Of a stretch of DNA of 64,000 bases, positions 15,001-51,000 are shown one piece after another. This DNA comes from Escherichia coli (GTDB lineage Bacteria > Pseudomonadota > Gammaproteobacteria > Enterobacterales > Enterobacteriaceae), in assembly GCF_030013205.1 (NCBI RefSeq), contig NZ_CP122648.1; one strand, written 5' to 3'. Made by a program: the position numbers. Position 1 is the stretch's first letter; each line of letters begins with the position of its first letter.

Positions 15001-18000
15001 TGGCGTATGGATTTTGTCCGTTTCATTTTTGTCTTCCGGGACCAGTGGTAAATACCCATCAGAATAGAGGATGGCTGGTCGAAATTGAAGCGAGAAGGGG
15101 GAAGAATGCGGCAGATAACCCGTATCTTTACGTTGCCTTACGTTCAGACGGGGCCGAAGCCCCGTCGTCGTCATCAGTTACGGAAAGGGTTATGACCGTT
15201 ACTGGTGGTAGTGCGTGCGGATGTTTGCTGAACGACGGGGGCCGGGCTATCAGGCGCATAACCATCAGCAATAGCATTCTGTTCCGGCGTTTGCGGGGCA
15301 ACGTTTTCCGGATTAGTGGAAACCGGTTTGCTCAGCGCATTGTTCAGTGCCAGCAGATCCTGCTCGTTCAACGTACCCAAGGCTGACTTAATATTCAGCT
15401 GATTAATCAGGTAGTTATAACGCGCATTCGCCAGCTCTTGCTTGGCGTTGTACAGCGTGGTGGTCGCATCCAACACATCAACAATGGTACGCGTACCGAC
15501 CGAGTAGCCCGCTTCCATCGCGTCTAATGAGCTTTGAGCGGAAACTACGGCTTGTTTGTAGGCGTTAATGCTACTGATAGAAGCATTAATGTTGTTGAAG
15601 GAGGAACGTACGGTTTGCACGACGCTACGATGCGCGCTTTCCAGTTGCTCACTGGCACCAACAAAGTTGTACTGGGCCTGTTTCACCTGCGAGTTAACCA
15701 TTCCGCCCTGATAAATCGGCAGCGAGAAGCTCAGGCCAACTTTGTTCTGGCCCATATTGCTATCGTCATACTGGGTACCAGCGGCACCTCGGGTTTTCGA
15801 ACCGCTATATGAGGTGTCAGAAATCCCGGTAGAAGCCGTTAAATCCAGAGTCGGTAAGTGACCATCCTGCGCCTGGCGAATTTGCTCGCGCGCCAGGTCC
15901 TGGCTCAAGCGCGCCTGTAACAACGACAGGTTGCGTTTTTCGGCTTCTTTCAGCAGCGTGTTAACCGGCTGTGGTTTGTCGGTTTTAAAGTTTTCGACAT
16001 TCAGCGCCGCCAGTTCCGGATAGTAGTTACCGGTGATCTGGCGCAGCTGCTCTACCGCGTTATCAAGGTTATTACGTGCGGTCACTTCGTTCGCCAGCAC
16101 GGTATCGTACTGTGCGCGGGCGTTCTGCACGTCGGTGATCGCTACCAGGCCCACGTTAAAACGTTGGGTGGTTTGATCTAATTGACGGTAGATCGCTTCT
16201 TTTTGCGCCTGTGTATAGGAAAGAACGTCAATAGCATTCAACACGTTGAAATAAGCGGTCGCGGTGTTGAGGATCAAGGTTTGTTGATCGGTCTGATACG
16301 TGACGTCCTGAATCCCAGCTGCTTTTTCCTGCAGCGTTAACGCACGCCATTTCGACATATCAAAAATGGATTGAGTTAACTGCAGGGACGCACTGGTCGC
16401 GTTAGAGTTGATGCCGTTCGCGTCGCGGTAGCCGTTGCTATAGGTGTAATCTGCACCTAAACCTAGCTGTGGCAGTAATGGACTGCGCGCTTCATTAATT
16501 TTTTCAAAGGCAGCATCACGATCGGCGGCAGACTTACGCAATTCCGGGTTACTAAGGCGTGCTTGCTGATAAACTTGCATCAGGTTCTCGGCCTGGCTCA
16601 ACGAACTGAACCCAGAAAGGCTCAGGCCGATAAGAATGGGGAGCAATTTCTTCATTTGCATTCCTTGTGGTGAAGCAGTATTTAGCGCGATCAAACTGTA
16701 AAATTATTGCGGATTCTAGCAGAAGCCGCTACCGCAAAAGGTTGGCGTTACGTGCCATAGGGCGTTAATGTGCCTCAATTTAACACATGACTGCTCAAAC
16801 GGCAGTCAAACGTCGCTGAAATTCACATTTAATTCACTATTAGTGCCAGGACATTAACAATGCTTAAGCCAGACAACCTGCCCGTTACATTTGGCAAAAA
16901 CGATGTAGAAATTATTGCACGAGAAACACTTTATCGCGGCTTTTTTTCATTAGATCTTTATAGATTTCGTCATCGTCTATTCAACGGGCAAATGAGTCAT
17001 GAGGTGCGGCGGGAAATTTTTGAGCGCGGTCACGCCGCAGTCTTGCTACCCTTTGACCCAGTGCGTGATGAAGTTGTGCTGATTGAGCAGATTCGGATTG
17101 CCGCATACGACACCAGTGAAACCCCCTGGCTACTGGAGATGGTTGCCGGGATGATAGAAGAGGGTGAAAGTGTGGAAGATGTTGCCCGTCGCGAAGCGAT
17201 TGAAGAGGCGGGACTGATAGTCAAACGGACCAAACCGGTGTTAAGTTTCCTGGCAAGCCCGGGGGGCACCAGTGAGCGTTCGTCAATTATGGTGGGCGAA
17301 GTGGACGCCACGACCGCAAGCGGTATTCATGGTCTGGCTGATGAAAACGAAGATATTCGCGTTCATGTGGTAAGCCGGGAACAGGCATACCAGTGGGTAG
17401 AAGAGGGGAAAATCGACAACGCAGCGTCGGTCATCGCTTTGCAATGGCTGCAGCTGCATCATCAAGCGTTAAAAAATGAGTGGGCATAAATGAAGCGTTA
17501 CACACCTGACTTTCCTGAAATGATGCGCCTGTGCGAGATGAACTTTTCACAATTGCGCCGTTTGTTACCGCGCAATGACGCACCCGGCGAAACTGTAAGC
17601 TATCAGGTGGCAAACGCACAATATCGGCTGACGATTGTGAAATCGACCCGATACACTACCCTGGTGACAATAGAACAGACTGCGCCCGCGATCAGTTACT
17701 GGAGCCTTCCGTCAATGACGGTGCGTCTGTATCATGACGCGATGGTGGCTGAAGTGTGTTCAAGCCAGCAGATTTTTCGCTTCAAAGCGCGGTATGATTA
17801 TCCTAATAAAAAGTTGCATCAACGCGACGAAAAGCATCAAATTAACCAGTTTTTAGCGGACTGGTTGCGATACTGTTTAGCACATGGAGCGATGGCGATT
17901 CCGGTTTACTAGCGTCGTGAAACCTAAGGACACCATTTGGAAAGCCTGTTAACCCTTCCTCTGGCTGGTGAGGCCAGAGTCAGGATTTTACAAATTACCG

Positions 18001-48000: not shown

Positions 48001-51000
48001 ATCCAGATAGTTCGCCAGCTCTTCATCATTGAGCTTTTTCTTAAGCACAAAGGAAAATAGCCCGCTGCTACCTGTAAAGTCTCGTTTCCAGAATTCGTGG
48101 CCTTTACTGCCAGGCAGAGCAGGGTGGTTAACTCGCGCTACTTGCGGATGTTCTGCCAGCCACTCAGCCACTTTCAGACTGCTTTCATGATGTTGACGCA
48201 GGCGAACACCCAAAGTGCGCAGGCCACGGCTGGTTATATAAGCGGTATCGGCATCGACCATCTGGCCCATCAGATAGGCATTCTCCCGCAGCTGCTCCCA
48301 GCAACGGGCATTGCATACGGCAGTACCAATCATCGCATCTGAATGCCCAACCAGATATTTGGTAGCGGCCTGAATGGAAACATCGATGCCAAAATCCAGC
48401 GCCTTAAACAGCACACCGGCCGCCCAGGTGTTATCGATCATAATGATGGCATCCGGCACCACACTGCGCACGGCGGCAACAATCGCCGGAACGTCGTGGA
48501 CTTCCATGGTGATGGAGCCTGGGGATTCCAGAAACACGATTTTAGTGTTTGGCTGCACATGTTTAACGATATCTGCGCCAATCAGCGGATCAAACCACGA
48601 TGTCGTTACGCCCAGTTTGCTGAGGATTTTGCTACAGAAATCCTGACTCGGTTCATAGGCGGTGTTGGTCATCAACACATGATCGCCCTGTTCGACAAAA
48701 GCAAGAATAGAATTAGCAACCGCCGCCGCCCCGCAGGGGAACAGCACGCAGCCTGCGCCACCTTCCAGTTCACACATCGCTTGTTGTAAGGAAAAATGGG
48801 TTAACGTTCCGCGCCGTCCATAGAACAACTCGCCATTGGCGCGATTGCGCGTCGCGTGCTTTTTGGCTGCCACACTGTCAAAGACCAGCGAAGAAGCGCG
48901 CTGAATCACGCTATTTACCGCGCCGAGAGTGTATTTTTTGCTGCGTCCTGCATTCACCAGTTGAGTATCAAGCTTTTTGTCCGCCATCTCGGGATTCCTG
49001 TTTTTATACGTCTGGATGTCTAAACTAGCATGAATATTCGCGGGCGCATCCTGAAGAATTGGCATAAAGCAGAAAATTTTCGCAAATGGCGTGCTGGTGA
49101 CTTTTTTACTGCGTAAACGCAAGGAAAAGAAAGCAAAGGTACGGCAGTATGCAAATAGTAATGAGAACGACTATCAATTCGACGTCGTTTTGATATTATT
49201 ATGCGCAGATTTTGTGACTTGCGTCCTGGAGATACACAGTGGGTAATAATTTAATGCAGACGGACCTTTCCGTCTGGGGTATGTATCAGCACGCCGATAT
49301 TGTCGTTAAGTGCGTGATGATTGGGCTTATTTTGGCCTCCGTAGTCACCTGGGCAATCTTCTTCAGTAAGAGCGTAGAGTTCTTCAATCAGAAGCGTCGC
49401 CTTAAGCGCGAGCAGCAACTGCTGGCTGAAGCGCGTTCCTTAAACCAGGCCAACGATATCGCCGCTGATTTTGGTAGCAAAAGCTTAAGCCTGCATTTGC
49501 TCAATGAAGCGCAGAATGAGCTGGAACTGTCAGAAGGCAGCGACGATAACGAAGGTATTAAAGAACGTACCAGCTTCCGTCTGGAGCGTCGGGTCGCCGC
49601 AGTAGGTCGTCAAATGGGCCGCGGTAACGGCTATCTGGCAACCATCGGCGCGATTTCGCCGTTCGTTGGTCTGTTTGGTACGGTCTGGGGCATCATGAAC
49701 AGCTTTATTGGTATCGCGCAAACGCAGACCACTAACCTGGCAGTCGTTGCGCCGGGTATTGCAGAAGCTCTGTTAGCAACGGCAATCGGCCTCGTGGCAG
49801 CGATTCCGGCGGTCGTTATCTATAACGTATTTGCACGCCAGATTGGCGGCTTTAAAGCGATGCTGGGTGATGTTGCAGCGCAGGTATTGTTGCTGCAAAG
49901 CCGTGACCTGGATCTGGAAGCCAGCGCCGCTGCGCATCCGGTTCGTGTCGCACAAAAATTACGCGCAGGATAATGTCCGATGGCAATGCATCTTAACGAA
50001 AACCTCGACGATAACGGCGAAATGCATGATATCAACGTGACGCCGTTTATCGACGTGATGTTGGTTCTGCTGATTATCTTTATGGTGGCGGCACCGTTAG
50101 CGACGGTAGATGTGAAGGTGAACTTGCCTGCTTCTACCAGCACGCCGCAGCCGCGCCCGGAAAAACCGGTTTATCTGTCGGTGAAGGCAGACAACTCGAT
50201 GTTTATCGGTAACGATCCGGTCACCGATGAAACAATGATTACGGCGTTGAATGCGTTAACCGAAGGCAAGAAAGACACCACCATCTTCTTCCGAGCGGAC
50301 AAAACCGTCGATTACGAGACGTTGATGAAGGTAATGGATACGCTGCATCAGGCGGGTTATCTGAAGATAGGTCTGGTCGGCGAAGAAACCGCCAAAGCGA
50401 AATAAAAATGATGCCCGGTTGCTTTTCACAACCGGGCATTTTTTTAACCTAAATGCTCGCCGCCGCACACGCCATGCACTTCTGCGGTGACGTAGCTCGA
50501 CTCCTGACTTGCCAGGTAAACATATACAGGGGCCAGTTCCGCCGGTTGCCCCGCACGCTTCATTGGTGTTTGCTGGCCGAACTGCGGGATCTTATCCTGC
50601 GTCTGTCCGCCGGAAATTTGCAGTGCTGTCCAGATCGGGCCAGGTGCAACAATATTCACACGAATACCTTTCTCCGCGACCTGTTTTGCCAGGCCTCGGC
50701 TGTAGTTCAGAATCGCCGCCTTCGTAGCCGCATAGTCCAGTAAATGCGGGCTTGGCTGGTATGCCTGGATTGACGAAGTGGTGATGATACTGGCACCTTT
50801 CGGTAGCAGGGGTATCGCTTCCTGGGTTAGCCAGAACAGTGCGAAAACGTTAATGGCAAAGGTCTTTTGAAACTGTTCGCTGGTGAGGTCTGCAATATCA
50901 GGAATGGCAACCTGTTTCCCGGCGACCAGCGCCATAATATCCAGCCCGCCTAAGGCCTTATGCGCTTCGTGAACCAGCGAACGGGCAAATTTCTCATCGC

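Follow-up and report, generated by a model that had tools for sequence, protein, structure and literature searches.

The window analysed here is a stretch of 64,000 nucleotides from an Escherichia coli chromosome (contig NZ_CP122648.1), in which four protein-coding genes start with a codon other than ATG: cpdA, encoding the 3',5'-cAMP phosphodiesterase, with TTG at 17937; a gene for a FecE-like ABC transporter ATPase with GTG at 24556; exbB with GTG at 49239; and hybA, encoding the Fe-S protein of hydrogenase-2 that is exported via the twin-arginine (Tat) pathway, with GTG at 55853. Coordinates of the starts, coding sequences (CDSs) and Shine-Dalgarno (SD) sequences are given in Table 1. We regard all four as genuine, conventional near-cognate initiation codons, with a probability of about 0.93.

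Annotation, open reading frames and initiation signals

A 2-kb query around cpdA was matched in 5425 of 5426 complete E. coli genomes, with 100% identity to strain K_EC180 (NZ_CP062203.1). Along the full 64 kb, two 1-nt insertions (10855 and 23538) and one mismatch (35490) separate the window from this genome. Start codons were read after transfer of the K_EC180 RefSeq annotation to window coordinates, which yielded 63 complete CDSs with 59 ATG, three GTG and one TTG start. The non-ATG set comprises the four genes named above and no others; a previous examination, made without databases (the sequence-only reading), had listed the same four at the same coordinates, under a range (17937-49241) that covers three of them and leaves hybA outside. 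Its proposed comparison with curated annotation bears the assignments out, as K-12 MG1655 has TTG for cpdA (b3032) and GTG for exbB (b3006) and hybA (b2996), with the codon, the 20 nt upstream and the protein lengths (275, 244 and 328 aa) identical to those in the window. For the ABC ATPase, which is encoded in an island without K-12 counterpart, the GTG start is recorded in the RefSeq annotation of K_EC180.

Each of the four non-ATG codons is preceded, 3-7 codons upstream, by an in-frame stop, with no canonical start in between, and therefore none of the open reading frames (ORFs) can begin earlier. The profile alignments of each protein extend back to residue 1-10, and a later start would cost essential N-terminal features in CpdA, the ABC ATPase and HybA; exbB is the exception. 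The sequence-only reading had credited each start with support from both the reading frame and an upstream SD sequence. The frame holds throughout, but the SD sequence only in three genes: AAGGA (cpdA), GGAG (exbB) and GGGGAG (hybA) are found 5-10 nt upstream of the start, with duplex energies of -5.7, -6.4 and -8.1 kcal/mol, respectively, all median or better within the window, whereas that of the ABC ATPase is weak or absent (-4.0 kcal/mol, rank 50 of 63, without a clean motif).

Table 1. Start sites, SD sequences and coding sequences of the four genes with non-ATG starts (window coordinates)
Feature	Position	Strand	Remarks
cpdA SD AAGGA	17926..17930	+	6 nt upstream of TTG; -5.7 kcal/mol, window median; overlaps in-frame TAA 17925-17927
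cpdA TTG start	17937..17939	+	N-terminal peptide, Ribo-RET/INRI, 48/48 orthologs
cpdA CDS	17937..18764	+	275 aa, cAMP phosphodiesterase; NF008359 covers 1-275/275
FecE-like ABC ATPase GTG start	24556..24558	+	in-frame TAA 24541-24543; no clean SD
ABC ATPase CDS	24556..25365	+	269 aa; PF00005 from residue 26, Walker A at about residue 42
exbB SD TGGAGA	49227..49232	+	GGAG core ends 7 nt before GTG; -6.4 kcal/mol
exbB GTG start	49239..49241	+	RefSeq and curated K-12; conserved across Enterobacterales
exbB in-frame ATG, codon 6	49254..49256	+	rival start, judged an internal Met; 15 nt downstream of GTG
exbB CDS	49239..49973	+	244 aa; NF007722 covers 1-244; PDB 5sv0_B identical over 1-244
hybA SD GGGGAG	55840..55845	+	inside hybO 3' end; -8.1 kcal/mol, rank 13/63
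hybO stop TAA	55848-55850	+	2 nt before hybA GTG
hybA GTG start	55853..55855	+	curated K-12 and RefSeq; conserved
hybA CDS	55853..56839	+	328 aa; twin-arginine motif RRNFIK at residues 3-8

For cpdA, the N-terminal peptide data that the sequence-only reading had named as a check are available: the peptide MESLLTLPLAGEAR corresponds to CpdA residues 1-14 from the annotated TTG and is accompanied by Ribo-RET and INRI support (PMC13245402, Table S1, row 698). CpdA scores 518.5 bits against NF008359 (cut-off 225). ATG is absent from the first 60 codons and the next in-frame start is a GTG at codon 45, which is impossible as a start because the NF008359 match spans residues 1-275 and that to the Metallophos domain already starts at residue 16. 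A literature search found no paper discussing the TTG/UUG start of cpdA or the GTG start of exbB. At its other end, cpdA shares 1 nt of its TGA stop with the ATG of yqiA (TGATG, 18762-18766), suggesting translational coupling.

In hybA, the GTG is directly followed by NRRNFIK, containing the twin-arginine motif, and HybA is synthesised with a Tat signal peptide at its N-terminus (PMC5902676). The protein matches NF008134 over its full length (596.9 bits, cut-off 263), and its alignments to the HmcB, NrfC and DsrO models begin at residue 2. With the next in-frame starts at codons 15 (TTG) and 40 (ATG), the start is forced by the Tat motif together with the ORF geometry. The 2-nt gap at the hybO-hybA junction (55848-55855) is of a geometry that suggests translational coupling.

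Non-ATG starts are not enriched in the window. E. coli as a whole uses AUG, GUG and UUG in 83, 14 and 3% of its genes (Hecht et al., bioRxiv 10.1101/063800), and well-annotated bacterial genomes in 81.8, 13.8 and 4.35% (bioRxiv 10.1101/063800); among 688 peptide-verified annotated starts in TRAINSPOTTER, 91% are ATG and 9% near-cognate (60/688, 50 GTG and 10 TTG, cpdA being one of the latter; PMC13245402). With these baselines of 9% to 17-18%, 5.7-11.5 non-ATG starts would be expected among 63 CDSs, and the observed share of 4/63 (6.3%) is at or below background (P(X>=4) = 0.83-0.998).

Additional TTG or GTG candidates upstream of metC, yqhA, yghX and tnpA were rejected as longest-ORF artefacts, the annotation having an ATG with an SD sequence in each case. 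The start of yqhC is disputed between the ATG at 46062 (299 aa) of the RefSeq pipeline and the ATG of curated K-12 annotation 57 nt upstream (46005; 318 aa), which is intact in the window; as both candidates are ATG, the non-ATG count is unchanged.

Initiation at the start codons and their possible maintenance

At cpdA, exbB and hybA, the 30S subunit would be placed by the SD sequence 6-7 nt upstream, and fMet-tRNA would pair with UUG or GUG via a first-position mismatch, so that each protein begins with Met. The ABC ATPase would be initiated at its GTG within an A/T-rich leader without a good SD sequence, and hybA would in addition be placed for translational coupling, 2 nt past the hybO stop. 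In reporters, GUG and UUG gave 10-100% of AUG translation (bioRxiv 10.1101/063800); the weaker codons would thus lower initiation within this range, and in cpdA and exbB the sub-optimal start is apparently held by selection, not drift.

The proposed role of selection was weighed against conservation within and beyond the species. Within E. coli, 41-mers centred on each start were searched against 5426 complete genomes with megablast, such that every 28-nt word spans the start codon. The native codon was present in 5425 (cpdA), 5417 (exbB) and 5418 (hybA) genomes and in all 1870 carriers of the ABC ATPase (1870/1870), with no ATG variant at any of the four sites among the 5426 genomes. Beyond E. 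coli, cpdA orthologs were collected by a metagenome scan with the motif LQITDTHLF (120 loci), of which 48 with an E/D-S-L/F-L/F N-terminus were used, and exbB orthologs by a genome scan with the motif WGMYQHAD (120 species-representative loci), which included 83 short-form Enterobacterales genomes. Start codon and SD sequence are kept while their neighbours vary: TTG and AAGGA are invariant in 48/48 cpdA orthologs with 66-89% protein identity to E. coli CpdA, the downstream Leu codons varying freely, and the exbB GTG is conserved in all 83 short-form genomes. For hybA the comparison covers three loci only (Escherichia whittamii and two Citrobacter loci, with identical GTG and context), and for the ABC ATPase the start is kept in Enterobacter.

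Several points weigh against our reading. The flanks within the 41-mers are also almost invariant, and invariance within E. coli is weak evidence for selection; we down-weighted it for this reason. Selection, although weak, in general favours AUG (Belinky et al.), which speaks against tuned non-AUG starts as a rule. Lastly, the N-terminal peptide check found nothing for the other three proteins: among the TRAINSPOTTER entries listed there are no N-terminal or initiation-profiling data for ExbB, HybA or the ABC ATPase, and the TetRP supplements contain no entries for cpdA, exbB or hybA.

Possibly, then, the non-ATG codons are historical accidents to which selection is indifferent, with expression set by promoter, SD sequence and coupling, and the codon unmutated so far. 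The unremarkable frequency in the window, an ABC ATPase lineage with both GTG and ATG, the weakness of start-codon selection reported by Belinky et al. and an E. coli diversity too low for within-species invariance to be informative are all in line with it. A single base change would however give ATG, yet this is seen neither in the 48 cpdA orthologs, which reach down to 66% identity, nor in the 83 exbB species from more than 10 genera, while neighbouring positions of spacer and codons are free to vary in both alignments; we therefore hold neutrality for somewhat unlikely. The invariance of the cpdA TTG and the exbB GTG over wide divergence, despite an AUG-favouring trend, instead suggests a gene-specific upkeep of the sub-optimal start. 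Tuned translation efficiency, raised as a possibility by the sequence-only reading, would then be a matter of individual genes and not a rule, a plausible interpretation that fits the deep conservation in these two. It is a more speculative step, which we take with reserve, that both codons might be actively maintained as expression limiters or regulatory handles; one possible handle would be a sensitivity of cpdA and exbB to IF3 or initiator-tRNA status.

Start assignment in the ABC ATPase and in exbB

For the ABC ATPase, the next ATG is at codon 37 and is excluded because the alignment to FecE and FhuC and the start of PF00005 would be lost. In these alignments, FecE position 3 falls on residue 10 and FhuC position 7 on residue 5, with model alignments overall beginning at residues 5-13, and the GTG at 24556 is the only canonical start option, with a predicted N-terminus of (M)AHNAK... 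Enterobacter and Lelliottia orthologs (80-89% identity) share this start position and begin with MAHN or MAQN, the first residue being given as V in JGI translations. At the DNA level, both Enterobacter mori and Enterobacter sp. 638 retain the GTG and its context (81-84% protein identity). More distant orthologs (Kosakonia, Citrobacter koseri, Erwinia) start with MPQxVEN and are 4-5 residues longer; in C. koseri, the start is an ATG preceded by GGAG. The start codon has thus changed in the course of evolution, a point against strong tuning of the ABC ATPase gene.

It is improbable, in our estimate, that this start is mis-assigned to a gene translated from a downstream near-cognate codon, or that the gene is poorly translated as part of an operon decaying in E. 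coli. The low rank of its SD sequence, which also counts against our general reading, the frameshift in the neighbouring receptor gene of K_EC180, the closest genome, and the ATG with GGAG of the longer C. koseri ortholog would all suit such a scenario. Against it stand the position of the GTG as sole canonical start before FecE/FhuC homology sets in at residue 10, the retention of GTG and context in the two Enterobacter genomes and of the GTG in all 1870 carriers, the V at this position in the JGI ortholog translations, and the receptor gene being intact in the window.

The gene belongs to an island (21420-29233) between parE and ygiN that K-12 lacks and 1870 of the 5426 complete E. coli genomes carry; K-12 mqsRA and ygiZ are absent from the window. 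The island encodes an IS200C transposase, a TonB-dependent siderophore receptor, a FecCD-type ABC transporter (ATPase, two permeases and binding protein) and a MurR/RpiR regulator. The receptor gene (22041-24182, minus strand) is an intact ORF of 713 aa in the window and a frameshifted pseudogene in the K_EC180 record, owing to one base in a C homopolymer at about 23538 (CCCCC vs CCCC), which could be a sequencing error in one of the records or phase-variable-like slippage. In the leader of the ATPase gene (24472-24527), the flanks diverge among E. coli, Enterobacter mori, Enterobacter sp. 638 and Citrobacter koseri, but the elements CTTGACTACTACA and AAAGAGAATGAGTTTTATTTTT hardly vary; plausibly, they represent a putative -35 element and a Fur-box-like operator of the iron-uptake operon.

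In exbB, the profiles are unable to choose between the GTG and an in-frame ATG at codon 6, on which the sequence-only reading had not commented, because the TIGR02797 alignment (344 bits, cut-off 206.2) begins only at ExbB residue 11; NF007722 is matched with 526.6 bits (cut-off 402). PDB constructs of the full 244-aa ExbB were set aside as proof of the N-terminus, since a construct sequence does not show the native start. The comparative evidence favours the GTG, from which the predicted N-terminus is (M)GNNLMQTDLSVWGMYQHADIVVK. In 60 of the 83 short-form genomes (Escherichia, Salmonella, Citrobacter, Enterobacter, Kosakonia, Lelliottia, Buttiauxella, Cedecea, Erwinia and others) the GTG is at the E. 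coli position and in 23 (Pantoea, Tatumella) one codon upstream, always with TGGAGA 7-8 nt before it. Codons 2-5 evolve as coding sequence, with Leu as TTA, TTG, CTG or CTT and synonymous changes in the Gly, Thr and Asn codons, and are homologous to coding residues (...GTNNLMKTDLSVW) of long-form ExbB, with xNNLM in frame in Pectobacterium and Brenneria. That ExbB is really, or additionally, initiated at the codon-6 ATG and the annotated GTG a mere convention is thus very improbable: the proximity of this ATG, the late start of the TIGR02797 alignment and the want of an ExbB peptide among the TRAINSPOTTER entries listed would allow it, but the conserved TGGAGA is 22 nt from the ATG and 7 nt from the GTG, the GTG is invariant in 83 species although the Val-synonymous GTA, GTC and GTT would be open to it if it were not a start, and both the synonymous changes in the Leu codon before the ATG and the xNNLM residues of the long forms mark the stretch between the two as coding. 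Minor co-initiation at Met6 may occur.

Two observations on ExbB stand apart from this. In Enterobacterales, the protein is either short (about 244 aa) or long, the long forms of Serratia, Yersinia, Pectobacterium, Brenneria and Dickeya having a signal peptide and a periplasmic extension rich in Ala and Pro (described in PMC9008036, with N-terminal sequencing for the Serratia protein only). In Pectobacterium and Brenneria, the codon aligned to the short-form GTG is an internal Gly or Asp codon before TNNLM, which suggests that the start of the short form either emerged at an internal position or was lost into one. Further, the RefSeq product name of ExbB (49239-49973), 'tol-pal system-associated acyl-CoA thioesterase', is wrong. 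The source is NCBIfam NF007722 (PRK10414), which matches ExbB over 1-244/244 and carries the YbgC description, and thousands of E. coli genomes are affected.

Other features and comparison with known systems

Elsewhere in the window, yghX (53250-54137) encodes an intact hydrolase of 295 aa; the K-12 gene is a pseudogene, the 5' end of which is overlapped by the annotated small ORF yqhI. A direct repeat of 357 bp (710-1066 and 1086-1442; 91.6% identity) carries two genes for 19-aa Ibs type I toxins, ibsE and a paralog.

The four starts are real, ordinary and already known, three of them from curated K-12 annotation and the fourth, that of the ABC ATPase, from the RefSeq record of K_EC180. The value of the analysis is mainly one of annotation quality control: gene models and public annotation are right at four non-ATG starts, the ABC ATPase is shown to be without its claimed SD support, and the choice between GTG and ATG6 in exbB is settled on comparative evidence. 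Mildly notable is the depth of conservation of the sub-optimal TTG of cpdA and GTG of exbB, contrary to the general AUG trend.

The textbook case of a start codon as expression limiter is cyaA, the gene for adenylate cyclase. Reddy and colleagues are said to have reported in PNAS in 1985 that its UUG start limits expression and that a start-codon mutation raised it. Like cyaA, cpdA encodes an enzyme of cAMP turnover and begins with a weak UUG, and the same limiter mechanism may be proposed for it; if it were true, cpdA would mirror cyaA, with both arms of cAMP turnover translationally throttled. The two differ in that the start mutation was shown to raise expression in cyaA, while no such experiment was found for cpdA.

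The ATPase of the island resembles FecE, FepC and FhuC in aligning with these families from residues 5-13 and in being part of a receptor/permease/binding-protein operon. It differs from them in scoring below every equivalog cut-off (FecE 284.4 vs 375, FepC 244.2 vs 497 and FhuC 206.4 vs 433 bits), with only that of the generic PF00005 (ABC_tran) reached, and is thus a paralogous siderophore-type ATPase. Unlike the TRAINSPOTTER-verified genes, ExbB, HybA and the ABC ATPase have no entry among the table entries listed; verified starts such as those of rpsT (TTG) and cra (GTG) resemble that of cpdA, and presumably those of exbB and hybA, in that an SD sequence guides initiation to a TTG or GTG read as Met. 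Between the window, which represents another E. coli strain, and K-12, the starts of cpdA, exbB and hybA show no difference of substance.

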